A DNA stretch of 64,000 nt, taken from the NCBI RefSeq assembly GCF_003018235.1, contig NZ_CP027439.1, one strand, 5' to 3'. Under the pieces are notes generated by a model. The model was not told the DNA's origin, ran no database searches, and saw only the letters and a program-made list of their open reading frames with translations. The translations under genes and the position numbers were made by a program. Positions 3,068-26,074 of the stretch are shown piece by piece (within the stretch, counting starts at the first letter, position 1; every line of letters begins with the position of its first letter). Source of the DNA: Escherichia coli (lineage in GTDB: Bacteria; Pseudomonadota; Gammaproteobacteria; Enterobacterales; Enterobacteriaceae).

Positions 3068-3838
3068 ATGAAGGTTTTAATTGTCGGTGCGACCGGCAGT
3101 ATTGGTCGTCATGTTGTAGAAATGTCGATAGAAATGGGACATCAATCGAAAGCCCTGGTCCGTTCCCCAAAAAAAAGAAAATTGTTGCCACAGGGAATTG
3201 AGATTGTTTATGGCGACGTCTCTGTCCCGGAAACATTGACCGGCATTGGAGATGATATCGATGCCGTTATTTTCACCCTGGGATCAGATGGATTAGGCCG
3301 CATTGGTGCTCGGGCAGTGGACTATGGCGGGGTGAAAAATATTCTTCAACAACTTAAGCATCGGCGAGTCAGAGTTGCGCTGATGACTGCCATCGGCGTG
3401 ACAGAAAGAGAAGGTTCGTATAACCGCCAGACGGAAGCGCATGACTGGAAACGTCGTGCGGAACGCCTGGTTCGTGCCAGCGGTCACCCCTATACCATCG
3501 TCAGGCCTGGTTGGTTTGATTACAACAAACCGAATGAACAACAAATCGTCATGTTACAGGGAGACAGACGTCATTCAGGCACACCGATCGATGGCGTGAT
3601 TTCCCGTAAACAAATAGCCAGAGTACTGGTTAGCGCATTAACAGACGATGATGCTAAGAATAAAACGCTTGAACTCATTGCCGAAAAAGGGAAAGAGCAA
3701 CAGAATCTCACCCCACTTTTCTCAGCCCTGCAACAGGACCGCGCAGATAAAAACGATGGTATTCATGATTTAAACAACATGCCCATGGACTCAGAGCCTG
3801 AGTGCGTTGTTCGTGATCTTAATGCAATGACGCAATAA
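3068..3838 (+). CDS. NAD(P)H-binding oxidoreductase, NmrA-like/atypical SDR
   Basis: Rossmann motif MKVLIVGATGSIGRHVV at N-terminus; start chosen at internal ATG of ORF 3050..3838. Confidence 0.75.
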   Translation: MKVLIVGATGSIGRHVVEMSIEMGHQSKALVRSPKKRKLLPQGIEIVYGDVSVPETLTGIGDDIDAVIFTLGSDGLGRIGARAVDYGGVKNILQQLKHRRVRVALMTAIGVTEREGSYNRQTEAHDWKRRAERLVRASGHPYTIVRPGWFDYNKPNEQQIVMLQGDRRHSGTPIDGVISRKQIARVLVSALTDDDAKNKTLELIAEKGKEQQNLTPLFSALQQDRADKNDGIHDLNNMPMDSEPECVVRDLNAMTQ

Positions 3839-6365: not shown

Positions 6366-7193
6366 TTATGGCCTGAGTTCCCCGTATTTATAAGAGGCCG
6401 TCACGCCGCCATCAATCAGAATGTCACTCCCGCTGATATACGTCCCGGCTGGCCCGAAAAGGAGTTCGGCTAATGCACCTATTTCATCCGGGGTTCCACC
6501 TCGTCCGGCTGGCGATTTTTCAAGCATATTCCTGTAAAACTCTCCACGCTCCGGACTCGTTAATTCGTCATAGGCCAGAGGGGTGAAAATAATCCCTGCA
6601 CTGATACAGTTAATGCGCGCTCCGCGTTTACCCCATTTCACGGCTTCCGCCATCACGCGCAGTGCGTTACCACGTTTGGATATTTGATAGGCGTAGAGGC
6701 TGTCATCAATTTCTTTAACGAACGGCAAATCCAGTAATGCCTCAGGTGTCAGCGTGGCTAATGCATCGGCCTGTGACTGGGTCAGGGCATCAACATTCAG
6801 ACGATGACTGGATTGTGAACCGATCACCACAGCGGAGCCTCCGGGGGCAATAACCTTACCAAATTCTTCAAATACGACAGCAGTCCCATATAAATCAACC
6901 CGAAGAATATCTTGGGCTTTGGCCTGTGAGGGGGAGAGCCCCGCTGTATGGATGACGCCTTTTATGTCCCCCAGCTCGGTGGCCGTGCGGACCAGGTTCT
7001 GGACTGACTGTCGGGAACTGACATCAACGACAGCGGTACTGATCGTAAAGCCTGCTTTTGACAGAATTTCTTCGGCTGACTGCGCACTTTCAGCCTTAAT
7101 ATCAGCCAGTAAAATATGCTTACCCACACTGACTCTGCGCGCAATCGCCTGCGCAATTGAGCCACTTCCAATGACCACAATGATCTCTTTCAT
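6366..7193 (-). CDS. Short-chain dehydrogenase/reductase (SDR) family oxidoreductase
   Basis: 275 aa; N-terminal glycine-rich motif IIVVIGSGSIAQAIARR and SDR catalytic YxxxK (YAYQISK). Confidence 0.85.
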   Translation of the reverse strand: MKEIIVVIGSGSIAQAIARRVSVGKHILLADIKAESAQSAEEILSKAGFTISTAVVDVSSRQSVQNLVRTATELGDIKGVIHTAGLSPSQAKAQDILRVDLYGTAVVFEEFGKVIAPGGSAVVIGSQSSHRLNVDALTQSQADALATLTPEALLDLPFVKEIDDSLYAYQISKRGNALRVMAEAVKWGKRGARINCISAGIIFTPLAYDELTSPERGEFYRNMLEKSPAGRGGTPDEIGALAELLFGPAGTYISGSDILIDGGVTASYKYGELRP

Positions 7194-16086: not shown

Positions 16087-16521
16087 ATGGAAAATATGAT
16101 GAAAACTATGCGTGAGTATTTCCCCACGCGAACAGTAGTGTTCGAACAGTCTCTGGATATGTTTGGTATCACCCGGGGTAAGGATGGGAAGCTCATATTT
16201 CCCCGTCATTCTGATAACCGTTTCCCGATCGGGCGTATCCGCAAACGTCTGGCAGCTTATGGCTGGCGCGGAGAACGTCTGAATCAGGAAGTAGCGCGTA
16301 TCGTCGCGGGTCCTGGTGTTCTTCCTGAAAGAAATGATTACAGCATATTTTTTCCTTACGGATGGGAACGTAACCAGCTTACCCCTGAGATGCGGAGAAT
16401 GTTTCCCCGGAAGACTGGTCGCCGCGTGCTGCTTATGCTGGATGAGCTCCATTATATTCATGACGCCGGGGAGCGTAAGTCGTTTTCACCAGAAAGTAAT
16501 GAAGCACCCGAGGTATCATGA
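16087..16521 (+). CDS. Hypothetical protein, translationally coupled to the downstream recombinase
   Basis: ATG at 16087 preceded by CAGGAG; stop overlaps recombinase start (ATGA). Confidence 0.6.
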   Translation: MENMMKTMREYFPTRTVVFEQSLDMFGITRGKDGKLIFPRHSDNRFPIGRIRKRLAAYGWRGERLNQEVARIVAGPGVLPERNDYSIFFPYGWERNQLTPEMRRMFPRKTGRRVLLMLDELHYIHDAGERKSFSPESNEAPEVS

Positions 16522-17300
16522 ATTACCCTTCTCTTCCCGGACAGGCCTACGCCCCGGAAAAAGTGCATCTACCTATGGCCATCGATTACCCGGCAGCGCT
16601 GGCCCTGCGTCAGATGGCAATCGTCCAGGACGAACTGCCGAAATACCTGCTGGCCCCGGAAGTGAGCGCCCTGCTGCATTATGTCCCCGATTTGCACCGC
16701 AAGATGCTGCTGGCCACGTTGTGGAATACCGGTGCGCGCATTAACGAAGCGCTGGCCCTGACCCGGAGTGATTTTTCGCTGGTGCCACCCTACCCGTTTG
16801 TGCAACTGGCCACGCTGAAACAGCGGGCGGAAAAAGCGGCCAGAACAGCAGGAAGAACGCCTGCCGGCAGCCAGGCGCATCGCTTGGTACCGCTGTCAGA
16901 TAAACAGTACGTCAGCCAGCTGGAGATGATGGTGGCCACGCTGAAAATTCCCCTCGAACGCAGGAATAAACGTACTGGCAGAACAGAGAAAGCACGCATC
17001 TGGGAAATTACCGACCGCACGGTCCGTACCTGGCTCAGCGAAGCGGTTGAAGCGGCAGCGGCTGACGGGGTGACGTTCTCCGTGCCGGTGACACCGCATA
17101 CATTCCGTCACAGCTATGCCATGCACATGTTGTACAACGGTATTCCGCTGAAAGTGCTGCAGAGCCTGATGGGACACAAGTCAGTCAGTTCGACAGAGGT
17201 GTACACGAAGGTGTTTGCACTGGACGTAGCTGCGCGACATCGGGTGCAGTTCCTGATGCCCAGTGATGATGCTGTGGCTATGCTCAGGGGAAACACCTAA
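16518..17300 (+). CDS. Tyrosine site-specific recombinase (phage-integrase family, plasmid resolvase-like)
   Basis: 260 aa; catalytic residues in GARINEALAL, HTFRHSYAMHML and GHKSVSSTEVYTKV. Confidence 0.85.
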   Translation: MNYPSLPGQAYAPEKVHLPMAIDYPAALALRQMAIVQDELPKYLLAPEVSALLHYVPDLHRKMLLATLWNTGARINEALALTRSDFSLVPPYPFVQLATLKQRAEKAARTAGRTPAGSQAHRLVPLSDKQYVSQLEMMVATLKIPLERRNKRTGRTEKARIWEITDRTVRTWLSEAVEAAAADGVTFSVPVTPHTFRHSYAMHMLYNGIPLKVLQSLMGHKSVSSTEVYTKVFALDVAARHRVQFLMPSDDAVAMLRGNT

Positions 17301-17455: not shown

Positions 17456-17615
17456 ACTCACGGTTTGCGCGGTGGGTCAACAAAATTAAATACGATCACC
17501 AGAAATATTTTCTGGACACTTTTTCCGATAGTGCCGAATTGTCCAGGTTGGAAAGCATTTTTTGTGCGTTGTTGAAGGGCCGCGACGAGTGGAGCAAGGT
17601 GACAAAAATAATGCT

Positions 17616-21042: not shown

Positions 21043-21046
21043 CGCT

Positions 21047-21299: not shown

Positions 21300-21490
21300 G
21301 GACTTACTCCACTGCAGTTTCAGAAACAACTACGTCTACAGGAAGCCAGACGATTGATGTTACGAGGTTCAGATGCCAGTATTGCCGGGTACAACGTTGG
21401 ATATGAAAGCACAAGTCAGTTCTCCCGGGAATATAGACGTTACTTCGGCTATCCCCCCAAAAAGGACATTGCACGATTACGCGAAACATA
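21300..21490 (+). pseudogene. AraC-family regulator, C-terminal HTH fragment only
   Basis: Translation ...[30 protein letters not shown] matches the second HTH of AraC/XylS proteins; no upstream body. Confidence 0.6.
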
Positions 21491-21529
21491 AACATCTTTG
21501 ACATTCGCGACGTCCGACCAGCCGAACAG

Positions 21530-21554
21530 GATAGAACACCCTGAACATCTCGGC
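21530..21554 (+). repeat. Conserved inter-cassette site, copy 7
   Basis: GGATAGAACACCCTGAACATCTCGG. Confidence 0.5.
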
Positions 21555-21653
21555 TGACTGTGCTTTCATTTTTAGTCGGTTAAGCAGACGCTTTTCTGTA
21601 ATTTCTTTCAGTTCAATGTAGCTGATACTTAACTTTTTGAAATAACTAATATT

Positions 21654-21941
21654 TCACCTCATTCGTTCGCTGGCAAGATTATAAACATCACTACGTTCAC
21701 GTTTCCCTACAGCAACAACAGCGATAACTAATTGATCATCAATCACCTGATAAACCAGGCGGAAGCCAGACGCACGAAGTTTAATTTTGTAGCAATCCTT
21801 TATCCCACGCAGTTTTGCTGATGGGATATGTGGATTTTCACTGCACTTCTTTAGCTTTTTAGCAAACTGCTGCTGAATTGCCTTATCCAGTTTTTGCCAT
21901 TCTTTCAGTGCATCTTCCCTGAATCTGACTGTGTAAGTCAT
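21654..21941 (-). CDS. RelE/StbE-family type II toxin
   Basis: 95 aa; ...CYKIKLRASGFRLVYQVIDDQLVIAVVAVGKRERSDVY resembles plasmid StbE/RelE. Confidence 0.85.
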   Translation of the reverse strand: MTYTVRFREDALKEWQKLDKAIQQQFAKKLKKCSENPHIPSAKLRGIKDCYKIKLRASGFRLVYQVIDDQLVIAVVAVGKRERSDVYNLASERMR

Positions 21942-22189
21942 AGGTAGCTATCCAGATCTACATCGTGCAGCTTCTGGTTGCTGCGTTCGGCGACCAGATT
22001 AACCAGTTCCTGATCGTCTAGGGCATCGAGCATCTTTTCATACAGTTCTGCGGGGACACAGTAAAAGGCGGGCTGGTTACGGTTCAGAATCGCGACTGGG
22101 TAACCATCACCGGCACTGACTGTCGCCATCGGGTTTTTTTTCAGTTCGCTGACACTGGCGCTAGTGTCACTCAGAATAATGTGGGGCAT
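21938..22189 (-). CDS. Phd/YefM/StbD-family antitoxin
   Basis: 83 aa, overlaps toxin start by 4 bp; classic antitoxin-toxin order. Confidence 0.8.
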   Translation of the reverse strand: MPHIILSDTSASVSELKKNPMATVSAGDGYPVAILNRNQPAFYCVPAELYEKMLDALDDQELVNLVAERSNQKLHDVDLDSYL

Positions 22190-22271
22190 AGGGCACCTTT
22201 AGAGACTATTTAACAGGTCTTTATAGTGTTCTAAAAAAGACCTCTTAACAAGTCTTTTTGTCATTTTACTC

Positions 22272-22316
22272 AATGTGCCGTAAAGCCCCGCCCTTCAGGG
22301 CGAGGAGGATGTCAAA
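22272..22316 (+). repeat. 45-bp direct repeat with hairpin, copy 1 (second copy at 26028..26072)
   Basis: AATGTGCCGTAAAGCCCCGCCCTTCAGGGCGAGGAGGATGTCAAA. Confidence 0.7.
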
Positions 22317-22412
22317 TAATAGGACCCCGAAAGGATTAGTAATGTGGCGTCTTTGCTACACAGGTGCTTTTGTAATATGTTGTATAGCGTACTCACTACA
22401 CAGGAGATGTGT

Positions 22413-22952
22413 ATGGCATTGTCACAGATCAGCGTTCGTATTGATGATGAACTCAAACAACGCACGGATGAAAAAATGAAACTGCTGAGAACCAACCCCA
22501 CGCAGGCCATTACGTTGCTCTATCAGTATATTGCTGAAAATGGGAAACTTCCCTTTACTGTCAGCACCCAACTCTTCACTTCAGAGGATTACACCCAAAA
22601 ATTAATCACCACAGTCAGATCTATTTATGAATACTGGCGCGCGCTTTCTGAGACATCAGCAACAACCAGAACGAAAAGTGGAATGGCCTATTCAATGGCA
22701 ATGGCAGCACATGTTTCGAAGCTGCACAGCGATCTGATACACAACTGCGGCACCTTGAGTGGTGAAGAAGTTGCCTCATTAATGATTGTTATGGAGGACA
22801 TTCTTTCTACGCCGCCATCTTTTTATCGCGGAGAAGCGCCCGATCAGGTGTTTCAGGATAAATTAAACGCTGCTGACCAAACTATTCTGATGATTGAAAA
22901 ATGTCATGGTATGAATGTTCAACGCGGGGAAAATTTTTACGCTCTCAGATGA
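22413..22952 (+). CDS. DinJ/RelB-like ribbon-helix-helix N-terminus with ~130-aa C-terminal extension
   Basis: N-terminal MALSQISVRIDDELKQRTDEKMKLLRTNPTQAITLLYQYIAENGKLPF resembles DinJ antitoxins; C-terminal domain unrecognised. Confidence 0.5.
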   Translation: MALSQISVRIDDELKQRTDEKMKLLRTNPTQAITLLYQYIAENGKLPFTVSTQLFTSEDYTQKLITTVRSIYEYWRALSETSATTRTKSGMAYSMAMAAHVSKLHSDLIHNCGTLSGEEVASLMIVMEDILSTPPSFYRGEAPDQVFQDKLNAADQTILMIEKCHGMNVQRGENFYALR

Positions 22953-22999
22953 ATGCACTGAATATGCAACAGCCCGTAAGGGTTTTTTTTGTGTACGCA

Positions 23000-23022
23000 G
23001 GACAGTTAATCCTAGTGTCCAG
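23000..23022 (+). repeat. Conserved inter-cassette site, copy 8
   Basis: GGACAGTTAATCCTAGTGTCCAG. Confidence 0.5.
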
Positions 23023-23085
23023 TGTGGAGCGGAAGTTACGTAACATTTGACGTAAGTATTTTTGGGATACTTATGAACTGAAATA

Positions 23086-23105
23086 AGATTTCGCATGCGA
23101 AATCT
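23086..23105. promoter_or_regulatory. parS-like palindrome 1
   Basis: AGATTTCGCATGCGAAATCT perfect palindrome. Confidence 0.6.
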
Positions 23106-23306
23106 ATTGCGTATCATTATTGATACTCTATGATTTCTCTGTATACTGTTCATATTGTCATGAACGTATGGCAACAAACGCAGTAGTAGATAGCTGCTTC
23201 TGCATCTTGGCGCAACGCCTGACTCACAGGAGTGTGTATGAAATACCGCAATGAATTCATATCATTACAGCAATACTTTTTCAATCCGCGCCGCCCCCTC
23301 TCAAAC

Positions 23307-23322
23307 ATTTCGCATGCGAAAT
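23307..23322. promoter_or_regulatory. parS-like palindrome 2 (parA operator position)
   Basis: ATTTCGCATGCGAAAT 15 bp upstream of the parA start. Confidence 0.6.
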
Positions 23323-23337
23323 CTTAAGGACTGTTAC

Positions 23338-24204
23338 ATGACACTGAAAATTGGACCTATCGGAAAATTAATCGTTATATGTAGCCAGAAGGGCGGAATC
23401 GTAAAATCGCAGTCATCCAGCGAAATAGCATATGATCTTCGAGAATCAGGTTTTCGTGTGCTTGAAATTGATATGGACTGGACTACTGGTCTGACAGAGA
23501 GAGCTTTCCCCGATAGCTTACCCTATGAGATAGAGCGCGAACCTTTAAGTAACAGTTTTACACCCGGCGAAGCGAATACATATCAGCTTTTCTTCCCGGA
23601 CACTGAAGTTCGACCGATTGAGCTTCCTGGCGGGCGTTTTTTTATTGGCGCTACCAGTGAGCTTAATGAAATTAACTACCGCAACAGCGACTGTATGTTC
23701 GACTTCAGAGACCGTATTGAAGAACTGAAGAAACAGTTTGATTTTATTATTGCTGATTCAGCGCCATCATATTCAAACGTTATGATCGCCGCACATATGT
23801 CAGCTGACTATCTTCTGATCCCTACTCTGTTGGAGAAGCAGGCCCGAAATGCAGTTGGTAAACAGCTTACTTACATGCAAAAAATAAAACGGAACTATAA
23901 TCCATCGTTGCAGTTTATGGGCACTTATGTGACCCAAACACCGGTAAAAAATTATAAAAAGCCGCTTAAAGAAGGGTATTTGGGACCTATTGATACACTG
24001 AATCTGAATCTACTCATTGAGATCCTTCAGGGAAAAGGATATTCCGAAGAGTACATTCTTGCCTATATATCATTTGTACCTGCTGCTGCCAAAGAAGCGA
24101 TAGAACTTGGCCTCTCATTTGATGAATATGATCCTAAGTGTCTTCCTGCAATTCAGTATAAAGAGCTTACCCAGAAAATTATTCAGATCGCAGGAGATAA
24201 ATAA
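23338..24204 (+). CDS. parA: ParA-family partition ATPase
   Basis: Deviant Walker A (ICSQKGGIVKSQ); overlaps parB start (TAATG). Confidence 0.8.
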   Translation: MTLKIGPIGKLIVICSQKGGIVKSQSSSEIAYDLRESGFRVLEIDMDWTTGLTERAFPDSLPYEIEREPLSNSFTPGEANTYQLFFPDTEVRPIELPGGRFFIGATSELNEINYRNSDCMFDFRDRIEELKKQFDFIIADSAPSYSNVMIAAHMSADYLLIPTLLEKQARNAVGKQLTYMQKIKRNYNPSLQFMGTYVTQTPVKNYKKPLKEGYLGPIDTLNLNLLIEILQGKGYSEEYILAYISFVPAAAKEAIELGLSFDEYDPKCLPAIQYKELTQKIIQIAGDK

Positions 24205-25235
24205 TGGCCAAGAAACCGTTTATGAAACGACTCAAGGCGCAGCAGGAAATGAAAAAAAACTCTGCTGTTGTCTCTGATATTGAACAAGTCATTGCAAATA
24301 AACAGCCAGATGAGAAGAGCCATGACGTATCTGCGCACCAGATTTTGACAGATATTTCCCGCCCGGTTCTTGAACCTGATGGACAGATAATCCGCGTCGA
24401 TATAAACCTGGTTTATGCTGAGGAACAAGTACGACCTGAAGAAGATTTCGATGAAGAGGTTATCGATGGTATGGCAGATACTTTCGAAACCATAGGGATG
24501 CTTACCCCGCCTCGTTGTTATCCCCGCGACAGACGTGGATACCAGATATGGTTAGGAGAAACACGAGTTCGTACTGCACGTAAACGTGGTGATACCCATA
24601 TTGATATTTATGTCGGTAAACCACCACGAGAAAGAAAAGAACGAATCATTGGTCAGCTCATTGAAAACCTTCAGCAATCGGGTTTAAAACCATTAGCGAC
24701 TGCAAGATCGTTCTATGAACTTAAGCATCACTTCAATATGACGGGTGAACAGATCGCAAAAACGATGGGTAAACCAACCTCATTTGTCAGTAAACATCTT
24801 CGTCTCATTGATGCTCCAGAGAATGTTACCGCCCTTCTCCGGGATAAAGTGACATCCGATATTGATTTGGCTTACACACTAATACAGGTAAATGAAAGGG
24901 CTCCTGAAGAAGCCGAGAAGCTTATTGCAGCTGCGCGGGAATCTGGTATTTCACGCGCGCAAGTTAAAGCTGTTCTTGATGAGGTTAAGAACAAAAGCAA
25001 CCGTGAGATTTCGCATGCGAAATCTAAAGCTCAGAATAAAAGGCCATCCAAGTCTCTTAATAACAATTCAGATGTAAAAAGCTGGCAGGTAGTTGTCGAG
25101 ATTGACGGTCAGCAGGGAGTAATAATGACCGACCGTGCGCCAGAGGAAGATGGCTATGTGTGGGTTAAATTAGATATTGGTGAAATATCCGTCGAGGCTT
25201 CAGAGGTTCGTGTCAAGGGAATGCGGTCTTTGTGA
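24204..25235 (+). CDS. parB: ParB-family partition protein
   Basis: 343 aa downstream of parA; ParB/Spo0J-like HTH region (GEQIAKTMGKPTSFVSKHLRL). Confidence 0.75.
   Translation: MAKKPFMKRLKAQQEMKKNSAVVSDIEQVIANKQPDEKSHDVSAHQILTDISRPVLEPDGQIIRVDINLVYAEEQVRPEEDFDEEVIDGMADTFETIGMLTPPRCYPRDRRGYQIWLGETRVRTARKRGDTHIDIYVGKPPRERKERIIGQLIENLQQSGLKPLATARSFYELKHHFNMTGEQIAKTMGKPTSFVSKHLRLIDAPENVTALLRDKVTSDIDLAYTLIQVNERAPEEAEKLIAAARESGISRAQVKAVLDEVKNKSNREISHAKSKAQNKRPSKSLNNNSDVKSWQVVVEIDGQQGVIMTDRAPEEDGYVWVKLDIGEISVEASEVRVKGMRSL
25006..25025. promoter_or_regulatory. parS-like palindrome 3 (inside parB)
   Basis: AGATTTCGCATGCGAAATCT. Confidence 0.55.
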
Positions 25236-25672
25236 TGAAATCAACCCCATTCACTGAAATGGCCACTGCATTCCGTGGCCAAATTGTCCGTCTCTGGGCG
25301 CTTCGATATCCCGGAACTCAATCCGAAGCAGCTGCTGCATTAACAGAAGCTGCTATCAATCTTGGATACGTTACAAGAAGTAGACCTGTGCCTGGAGCAG
25401 CCTTATTATCATGGTTATCGAATCCCGCTGAAACGCCTCTGTGGGCGGCTCAGACCGCATTAACGATGATGCTCAAGATTGGCTGGAAGCCAGAGAGTAA
25501 TCAAGAATGGTGTGGGATGTCGGCACTGATATTCAGAGCTAATCGTAAACTTTCACTTGAACTGTTAGTTGCATCCTTGCCTGATAGTATAGACAGGCAA
25601 ACTGCTACAGGATGGTTTGTGGCTGCAATAGAAGAAGATGCCCACTACCGTTATAACAGGAAATTCAGATGA
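25232..25672 (+). CDS. Hypothetical protein
   Basis: 146-aa ORF overlapping parB stop. Confidence 0.5.
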   Translation: MMKSTPFTEMATAFRGQIVRLWALRYPGTQSEAAAALTEAAINLGYVTRSRPVPGAALLSWLSNPAETPLWAAQTALTMMLKIGWKPESNQEWCGMSALIFRANRKLSLELLVASLPDSIDRQTATGWFVAAIEEDAHYRYNRKFR

Positions 25673-25992
25673 CCTTTCAGGAGCTTGATGCTTGTATTGC
25701 TGGCTCTGGTAGGCGTTCTATCGCTTCAGCGTTAATCGCTTTTATTCTCGATGCGTTTGATGATGGACAGGACGGAGTTGATCTTGATTCTTTCCAGAGC
25801 CAGATGCGCTTCGTTCGCAACAATGTAACAACCGTAGCCAACTATCTGCAGCGACAGGGGGTTCTCCATATACTGTATTACCGTGATGGTGCCGCAGAAC
25901 GTCAGTATGAGACCGTTAATAATTATGGACGATGGGCAAAACAGCACTATCGTCCTTCTCAGGCACTTATTCAGTTGCACCGCCGTAATTAA
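25669..25992 (+). CDS. Hypothetical protein
   Basis: 107-aa ORF, overlapping start/stop with the upstream ORF. Confidence 0.5.
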   Translation: MTFQELDACIAGSGRRSIASALIAFILDAFDDGQDGVDLDSFQSQMRFVRNNVTTVANYLQRQGVLHILYYRDGAAERQYETVNNYGRWAKQHYRPSQALIQLHRRN

Positions 25993-25994
25993 AG

Positions 25995-26020
25995 CAAAGA
26001 TTTCGCATGCGAAATCTTTG
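25995..26020. promoter_or_regulatory. parS-like palindrome 4 (26-bp perfect palindrome)
   Basis: CAAAGATTTCGCATGCGAAATCTTTG. Confidence 0.6.
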
Positions 26021-26027
26021 CTTACCT

Positions 26028-26072
26028 AATGTGCCATAAAGCCCCGTCCTTCTGGACGGGGAGGATGTCAAA
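26028..26072 (+). repeat. 45-bp direct repeat with hairpin, copy 2
   Basis: AATGTGCCATAAAGCCCCGTCCTTCTGGACGGGGAGGATGTCAAA; stem shows compensatory changes relative to copy 1. Confidence 0.7.
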
Positions 26073-26074
26073 GG

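Follow-up and report, generated by a model that had tools for sequence, protein, structure and literature searches.

A rare plasmid-borne RelB derivative with a predicted C-terminal four-helix bundle and a putative promoter-operator region of its own

Introduction

Omega of plasmid pSM19035 is a ribbon-helix-helix (RHH) protein, and TomB/YmoB, the antitoxin of Hha, is a four-helix bundle. In RelB of Escherichia coli, the alpha3/L4 segment (residues 56-79) binds RelE and is required for full repression of the operator (PMC12301738), and the known ResD system is described with just one rfsF site, which precedes resD (PMC9412624, PMC8004404). Here we describe a gene that lies in a 64-kb stretch of E. 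coli DNA (contig NZ_CP027439.1), hereafter the window, between a RelE/Phd toxin-antitoxin pair and a parA-parB operon, and encodes a 179-aa protein in which a RelB-like RHH domain is followed by a predicted four-helix bundle. A first, sequence-only reading of the window had proposed that this protein could be a fused regulator or a single-chain toxin-antitoxin-like protein.

We conclude that the RelB-like protein is a real, constrained and very rare derivative of RelB, which has neither the toxin-binding tail nor a partner toxin. Our preferred reading, to which we assign a probability of about 0.55, is that its gene encodes a free-standing autorepressor carried on an independent cassette.

Materials and methods

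The labels L002 to L032 denote the plasmid and genome loci with which the window was compared, among them pE105-3 (L002), a Pectobacterium locus (L014), pKP04VIM (L016), a plasmid of E. coli O27:H7 (L021), Salmonella p14-120 (L022), a Hafnia locus (L026) and the F plasmid (L032). The plasmid set consisted of 72,556 PLSDB plasmids and the E. coli set of 5,426 complete genomes. The C-terminal domain (C-domain) was searched as a hidden Markov model (HMM) against 1.84 billion cluster representatives, and word-indexed searches covered 5.8 billion clusters. The genomic context of the RelB-like gene was compared across 11 loci, and the promoter footprint was obtained by aligning 95 nt of upstream DNA from nine homologues (protein identity 42-98%). 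For the 27-bp site described below, the whole window was scanned against the consensus, a procedure that gives 0-1 hits in shuffled sequence.

Results

The region at 21400-23400 was 99.7% identical to plasmid pDEC5B-4 of E. coli O55:H7 (IncFIA/FIC, 75 kb). Three open reading frames (ORFs) had been delimited in this region by the sequence-only reading, and all three were found with exactly those boundaries. The RelB-like gene (22413..22952, + strand) is divergent from the RelE/Phd pair and is preceded by an AGGAG Shine-Dalgarno sequence at 22402-22406. Domain models and AlphaFold2 (AF2) predictions delimit an RHH domain (codons 1-51, 22413-22565), a flexible linker (codons 50-56) and the bundle (codons 57-164, 22581-22904). 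PF04221 (RelB) covers residues 4-50 with 25.7 bits against a gathering score of 22.4, and the NCBIfam DinJ/RelB models extend to residue 70 at most, with equivalog and subfamily scores below their cutoffs. Residues 3-59 align with residues 1-55 of K-12 RelB at 39% identity, after which the similarity ends, so that RelB residues 56-79 have no counterpart in the 179-aa protein. Searched against the PDB, the family profile matched RelB (4fxe) at 1.7e-9 and DinJ (4q2u) at 0.94. By these comparisons the N-terminal domain is nearer to RelB than to DinJ; the RHH assignment made from the sequence alone thus stood, whereas its emphasis on DinJ did not.

Purifying selection acts on both domains: dN/dS is about 0.05-0.2 in the RHH and 0.15-0.45 in the bundle. 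The AF2 monomer, built from a 15-sequence alignment, places the bundle helices at residues 57-80, 83-110, 117-131 and 145-164, with mean predicted local distance difference test (pLDDT) values of 90-96 in ten-residue blocks over residues 61-160. When two copies were modelled as a tethered dimer, residues 3-11 became beta strands in both, and the N-terminal pLDDT rose from 42 to 74. The linker (residues 50-55) stayed below 50, and the predicted template modelling score of this model was 0.36. The tethered-dimer model is consistent with a defined RHH core that carries two mobile bundles.

Residues 71-179 had no match in Pfam, NCBIfam, PHROGs or PADLOC. Against PDB sequences the C-domain profile retrieved designed helical bundles only, at E > 0.005, and a Foldseek search with the C-domain returned nothing at E < 0.001. 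The library scans were as empty as expected from the earlier description of these roughly 125 aa as unrecognised, and structure prediction, which had been recommended as a check, gave a confident four-helix bundle, for which neither sequence nor fold pointed to a specific relative. Only three columns (T, A and L) are invariant across the whole family, none of them of a charged or catalytic type, a pattern that speaks for a scaffold or interaction domain and against an enzyme or toxin. TomB/YmoB was tried as an identity for the C-domain and rejected, with an hhalign probability of 0.4% and no PF10757 match even at E = 10.

The family is very small. The HMM search yielded six matches, all of the same architecture: in each full-length match the same RHH comes first and the C-domain begins near residue 50-52, and the sixth match is a 93-aa fragment. 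Word-indexed searches found 15 members, and a second round, seeded with distant members, added none. Throughout these searches, the C-domain was encountered only in fusion with a RelB-like RHH. All family members with a named organism belong to the Enterobacterales. With tblastn, the C-domain was detected on 84 PLSDB plasmids, 81 of which carry one variant of 68.8% identity and are large, mostly conjugative plasmids of Klebsiella and Raoultella. The RelB-like gene was present in three of the complete E. coli genomes, always on plasmids. In two of these three, pE105-3 (L002 4960-5508) and NZ_CP114129, the gene has lost its promoter, its operators and its first 10-11 codons to an insertion sequence (IS); the parAB operon that follows has remained intact, with about 99.7% identity. 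RefSeq still annotates the IS-trimmed remnant as an antitoxin.

Alignment of the nine upstream regions revealed conserved islands amid otherwise divergent DNA. They comprise a pair of 20-bp palindromes (GTRTAGC-N6-RCTAYAC) with a spacing of exactly 40 bp, a -35 hexamer TTGCTA inside the first palindrome, and a -10 element TAnnnT that lies 17 nt later, immediately before the second. In the window, the putative operator O1 (ATGTGGCGTCTTTGCTACAC, 22342..22361), which is seen in the nine loci and in L014, is a 20-bp palindrome with two mismatches to the consensus and contains the -35 TTGCTA at 22353-22358 (+ strand). It is followed by the -10 hexamer TATGTT (22376..22381, + strand), whose TA...T is invariant across the nine promoters; this promoter call is our own reading, since the hexamers score 8/12 to consensus and fall below the listing of the automatic promoter scan. 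The putative operator O2 (GTATAGCGTACTCACTACAC, 22382..22401), situated between the -10 and the Shine-Dalgarno sequence, matches the palindrome perfectly and is the sole perfect copy both in the window and in pDEC5B-4. The remainder of the window and of pDEC5B-4 yielded no further operator-like site.

Downstream of the gene, a Rho-independent terminator (AGCCCGTAAGGGT followed by T8; 22971..22992, + strand), detected by a scan for hairpins and T-runs, ends the monocistronic unit, and a stronger terminator (GCCCCGGAAGGGGCTTTTTT) occupies the same place in L004, L007 and L017. The parA start codon follows at 23338. No toxin-like ORF lies downstream of the RelB-like gene, in agreement with the sequence-only reading, and no conserved downstream partner was found across the 11 contexts. 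Because conserved palindromes overlie a conserved promoter, phylogenetic footprinting leads directly to a monocistronic gene that would be repressed by its own product through these candidate operators. In Pectobacterium (L014), the O1/O2-promoter unit lies upstream of a DndB-like gene that precedes the RelB-like homologue, and hence of the whole operon. L012 has a variant palindrome at about 3600-3680, GTACAGC-AATATT-GCTGTAC, in which the half-site is GTACAGC instead of GTRTAGC; its protein has the beta-strand SINVRI, as in RelB, instead of SQISVRI, and is the only homologue with a different strand. As judged from the alignments, this is a single case of co-variation between protein and operator.

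Comparison with sister plasmids separated the RelB-like gene from both of its neighbours. In L021 and L022, the RelE/Phd pair is followed by parA-parB without the RelB-like gene, with protein identities to the window of 94-95% for RelE/Phd, and of 96/90% and 95/89% for ParA/ParB. Nucleotide homology between these plasmids and the window stops at 22267 and resumes at 23080. L023 retains the RelE/Phd pair, which is followed by two copies of the 27-bp site. Since sister plasmids keep both neighbours without it, and since it occurs in other settings, these arrangements indicate that the RelB-like gene is not integral to the toxin-antitoxin pair or to the par operon. The succession of RelE/Phd, RelB-like gene and parA is most readily accounted for by three separate modules standing at the end of a modular array.

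The other settings are diverse. The RelB-like gene adjoins a type Ib ParA in L009 and a P1-type ParAB in L012, and in L004-L008 it lies about 2 kb downstream of sopAB. Its neighbour is a serine resolvase in L017 and the end of a Tn21-type mer transposon in pKP04VIM, whereas L003 and L010 have no par nearby. In pKP04VIM, the sole plasmid examined of the 81 with the common variant, neither a RelE/Phd pair nor par genes occur within 7 kb. An orthologous RelE/Phd pair abuts the RelB-like gene in three arrangements: divergent in the window, convergent in L007 and tandem in L009. The sequence-only reading had held that its view would fail if the C-domain proved to be a common regulator domain of ParA operons. 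What we found is a very rare domain that occurs with three unrelated par systems and also with none, and parAB operons that lack the gene.

Small ORFs accompany several homologues. The three most distant loci contain an ORF of 73-75 aa with two hydrophobic segments (L012 4806-5033, L014 6566-6787, L010 916-1140), which follows the RelB-like gene after 5 nt in L014 and after 108 nt in L012 and lies near it in L010. Two of these three putative two-transmembrane (two-TM) ORFs are 32% identical to each other; they match no known toxin family, and may represent an ancestral cargo or toxin of the module. In L010 and L014, hha genes lie within 1.5 kb of the RelB-like homologues. In L003, a 91-aa ORF with two CxxC pairs (6555-6830), which is zinc-ribbon-like and belongs to no known family, overlaps the stop codon of a 66%-identical homologue by 4 nt and is a possible lineage-specific partner of it. 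Homologues of the zinc-ribbon-like ORF and of the two-TM ORFs were not found in the window.

The par operon has its own control sites, because copies of a different palindrome accompany a ParB with KorB and KorB_C domains. Two perfect copies of this palindrome (TTTCGCATGCGAAA) flank the parA promoter (23120-23147), and two further copies are located inside parB and after the par operon, whose genes span 23338-25992. In all, the four perfect copies at 23085-23105, 23304-23324, 25005-25026 and 25992-26023 are extended to palindromes of 16-20 bp. They are probably parS/operator sites of the KorB-like ParB; the palindrome sequence was not found in the literature searched. The operon also holds two overlapping hypothetical genes of 146 and 107 aa that belong to no family.

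The RelE/Phd pair is a separate neighbouring module of the ordinary StbDE type. The toxin gene (21654..21941, - strand, 95 aa) matches PF05016 at 4e-16 and the RelE_StbE model TIGR02385 with 37.9 bits against a cutoff of 27.9; its product matches RelE chains in the PDB over its own full length (1e-29 to 2e-30) and is 56% identical to RelE of E. coli K-12, which places it among the RelE-fold mRNA interferases. The Phd/YefM (StbD-like) antitoxin gene (21938..22189, - strand, 83 aa) comes first in the pair and overlaps the toxin gene by 4 nt. It matches PF02604 (Phd/YefM) with 25 bits (1.6e-5), just under the gathering score of 29.8 bits, and the NCBIfam YafN model at 1.5e-10. RefSeq names the pDEC5B-4 copy Phd/YefM, and no solved relative of this Phd-type antitoxin was found by sequence search. 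The above-cutoff toxin model, the full-length RelE matches and the overlapping Phd-type gene bear out the earlier description of a standard antitoxin-toxin pair. Upstream of the Phd gene, a 20-nt inverted repeat (AGACTATTTAACAGGTCTTT / AAAGACCTCTTAACAAGTCT, 22203..22255) is a putative operator of the pair and is unrelated to O1 and O2; its TTAACA(A/G)GTCT motifs also precede the orthologous pair of L007 and that of L021. A 2-kb query around the pair matched 654 PLSDB plasmids, mostly at 80-90% identity.

The RelB-like cassette is bounded by a 27-bp imperfect palindrome with the consensus CTGGACAGAATnACCTGAAyGTCCAGG. In L004 and L017, copies of this site lie 120-130 nt upstream of the start codon and 46-47 nt past the stop codon. 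The window cassette retains the downstream copy only, a degenerate one at its right end (CAGGACAGTTAATCCTAGTGTCCAGTG, 22998..23024, + strand), and in L021 one copy stands at the precise place that the cassette would occupy. Seven more copies, all in + orientation, were found in the window at 17614, 18475, 19503, 19961, 20482, 21045 and 21527. From 19503 on, each interval of this array holds a fragment of an ORF or one to two small ORFs; in the first two intervals, the only ORFs are mechanical calls without support. Between the sites at 21045 and 21527, a 45-codon fragment of an AraC-family helix-turn-helix (21354-21491; PF12833, 4e-6) is a gene remnant.

The array starts 314 bp past a tyrosine recombinase gene (16518-17300, 260 aa) whose product is 86% identical to ResD of F and R64. 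The same recombinase accompanies arrays of the same orientation in L013/L012 (five sites), L022 and Hafnia L026, and in L029 and L030 27-bp sites occur together with recombinases of 43-45% identity. The RelB-like gene of L015 stands beside a recombinase of 45% identity, and no 27-bp copy was detected there. The F plasmid has a half-site (ATGGACAGAACAACCT|AATGAACACAG, L032 7969-7995) 296 bp after resD that is conserved only to the centre ACCT, which suggests a past crossover at the centre of the site. A sequence guessed to be the F/R64 rfsF-like site was absent from the window, the 27-bp consensus was absent near resD of R64, and the 27-bp sequence was not found in the literature searched. A scan of 100,044 species genomes with the exact pattern returned nine loci, eight of them in Enterobacterales. 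In pKP04VIM (L016 6700-6790), the end of the Tn21-type mer transposon lies directly against the left half of the cassette's upstream 27-bp site, a region that may be an insertion hot spot in large Klebsiella plasmids. An integron-type array was considered and rejected: the recombinase scores far below the integron-integrase cutoffs, and the repeats are 27 bp long rather than attC sites of 57-141 bp.

A 50-bp hairpin-containing repeat (22266..22317, + strand) marks the junction between the RelE/Phd pair and the RelB-like cassette. With its second copy at 26022-26073, this element (AATGTGCCrTAAAGCCCCGyCCTTCwGGrCGrGGAGGATGTCAAA) brackets the block formed by the RelB-like cassette and the par operon. 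The stems of the two copies differ by compensatory changes (GCCC..GGGC and GTCC..GGAC) that preserve the hairpin. Both copies gave Rfam HgcC matches of 25-32 bits against a threshold of 50; these were the only Rfam matches, all sub-threshold, and were taken as chance.

Discussion

As a free-standing autorepressor, the RelB-like protein would be the product of a self-contained cassette consisting of promoter, two operators, gene and terminator. Homology and the tethered-dimer model suggest that the N-terminal 50 residues would dimerise into an RHH, and the phylogenetic footprint suggests that RHH dimers would bind O1 over the -35 and O2 past the -10, thereby shutting their own promoter. The disordered tail of RelB, which serves both neutralisation and RelE-dependent co-repression, would have been replaced by a folded bundle on a flexible linker. 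More speculatively, the bundle might supply the dimer-dimer cooperativity or the partner docking that RelE gives to RelB, in which case repression would be independent of a toxin. The conserved promoter-operator architecture fits the 'fused regulator' half of the sequence-only reading. Several points weigh against our interpretation. A repressor of itself alone is without evident selective value, and an unseen target or partner must exist. The operators were assigned by conservation, and cooperativity through the bundle is unsupported by the dimer model, which has no defined bundle-bundle packing. Moreover, the gene is dispensable in the two E. coli plasmids in which an IS has taken its promoter and first 10-11 codons. 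Finally, the divergence of the adjacent RelE/Phd pair tracks that of the gene (RelE of 95% identity with a gene of 78%, RelE of 57% with a gene of 42%). Together with the three arrangements, this could reflect a functional link with the StbDE-type pair rather than the shared module traffic to which we attribute it.

A functional link of this kind would suit an orphan or trans-acting ('anti-addiction') antitoxin, which would neutralise a RelE-type toxin made elsewhere (by the neighbouring RelE homologue, chromosomal RelE or a competing plasmid) and use the bundle as a protease-resistant toxin-binding domain. The RelB-like N-terminal domain, the 56% identity of the adjacent toxin to RelE, the co-varying adjacency and a relic of a Phd operator half-site upstream of the RelB-like gene in L009 all agree with it. 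However, the RelE-binding alpha3/L4 of RelB (see PMC12301738 for its role) has no counterpart, no family member has a conserved toxin partner, and among 15 billion proteins the C-domain occurred in no bona fide toxin-antitoxin pair; the RelE homologue is already paired with an antitoxin encoded by an overlapping gene, and in pKP04VIM, which represents 81 one-variant plasmids, the 7 kb around the gene contain no RelE. We therefore consider a trans-acting antitoxin improbable. Improbable, too, is a leftover regulator that once repressed an operon with a small, possibly toxic two-TM protein, the cargo having been lost in the lineage of the window. The two-TM ORFs beside the gene in the three deepest-branching loci, two of them related, and the operator-promoter at the head of multi-gene operons in L014 and L012 are what such a history would leave behind, although the mutual homology of these ORFs is weak and none of them matches a known toxin family. 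Against it, the common form, on 84 plasmids, is a monocistronic gene with a conserved terminator, and both domains of its product are under purifying selection.

Three further explanations fare much worse. The position of the window gene, upstream of and co-directional with parA, and of its homologues upstream of a type Ib ParA (L009) and a P1-type ParAB (L012), recalls a KorA- or omega-like regulator of parA-parB, or a coordinator of toxin-antitoxin and par promoters, and the ParB is KorB-like. Yet the gene has its own terminator, no O1/O2-like site occurs near the parA promoter or elsewhere in the window, and that promoter is flanked by ParB palindromes of its own. The par operon is present without the gene in L021/L022 and with a disrupted gene in pE105-3, and several carriers (pKP04VIM, L003, L010) lack an adjacent par; this explanation was already disfavoured and we hold it to be very unlikely. 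An equally small chance is given to a TomB/YmoB-like modulator, in which the bundle would act on an Hha-family protein as TomB acts on Hha. The hha genes within 1.5 kb of two distant homologues (L010, L014) are in its favour, but hhalign gave 0.4% against TomB, Foldseek found nothing at E < 0.001, a tblastn search of the window with an Hha query was empty, and the incomplete gene table that PLSDB gives for pDEC5B-4 lists no hha. As for the single-chain toxin-antitoxin proposed by the sequence-only reading, with a C-terminal toxin restrained by the fused RHH, it has only the absence of a separate toxin gene to recommend it. The generic bundle has no invariant residue of a charged or catalytic type, matches no toxin fold or model and resembles no toxin, and an N-terminally truncated copy with the whole C-domain persists in two plasmids; we regard this proposal as scarcely credible.

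A broader interpretation extends the autorepressor reading to the surroundings of the gene. The RelB-like gene and the RelE/Phd pair may both be cargo of an undescribed site-specific cassette platform of enterobacterial plasmids, formed by the ResD-like tyrosine recombinase and the 27-bp array, with the bundle acting as a RelE-type co-repressor. We put this forward tentatively, as possible though on balance doubtful. If the 27-bp array is a recombination platform, it would explain the shuffling of small maintenance modules among F-, R- and HI-type plasmids, modules that would include toxin-antitoxin pairs, regulators and ORFs of no assigned role.

The detection of this protein has consequences for the annotation of plasmids. 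Databases label it 'RelB/DinJ family antitoxin' despite the absence of two defining features, the toxin-binding tail and a partner toxin, and it is an example of an antitoxin DNA-binding module re-used as a free-standing regulator. Such genes should not be counted as toxin-antitoxin loci in plasmid surveys. If this broader interpretation is true, the RelB-like protein represents a new class of toxin-independent RHH repressor with a built-in co-repressor bundle, and if the bundle indeed replaces toxin-mediated cooperativity, it offers a natural test case for hard-wired conditional cooperativity.

Compared with known systems, the RelE/Phd pair of the window shows no notable difference from StbDE and RelE-Phd modules: the toxin passes the RelE/StbE model, the antitoxin comes first, the genes overlap by 4 nt and an inverted repeat lies upstream. 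The array resembles integrons and dif modules in layout only, its parts not being those of an integron. The likeness of the C-domain to TomB/YmoB is one of fold class only, with 7% identity and a score equal to that of many unrelated bundles. Omega of pSM19035 and KorA of RK2 share with the RelB-like protein the character of a small predicted dimeric repressor whose gene closely precedes a parA-parB (KorB-like) operon and adjoins a toxin-antitoxin module; the window gene differs in having its own terminator and no operators shared with par or toxin-antitoxin promoters, and the par operon of the window also occurs without it. With E. coli DinJ it shares the RHH superfamily, the RefSeq family label and coverage by PRK11235 over residues 4-70 at 7e-13, but the score of 48.6 bits compares with an equivalog cutoff of 96, the PDB DinJ chain matches at E = 0.94 only, and there is no YafQ partner. 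E. coli RelB (PDB 4FXE, 2K29) has a homologous RHH and, likewise, palindromic repeats over its own promoter. Unlike relB, the window gene is monocistronic, with a terminator in place of a downstream relE-like gene and an operator, GTRTAGC-N6-RCTAYAC, for which no match to relO was made, and in its product a folded four-helix bundle of about 110 aa replaces the alpha3/L4 tail.

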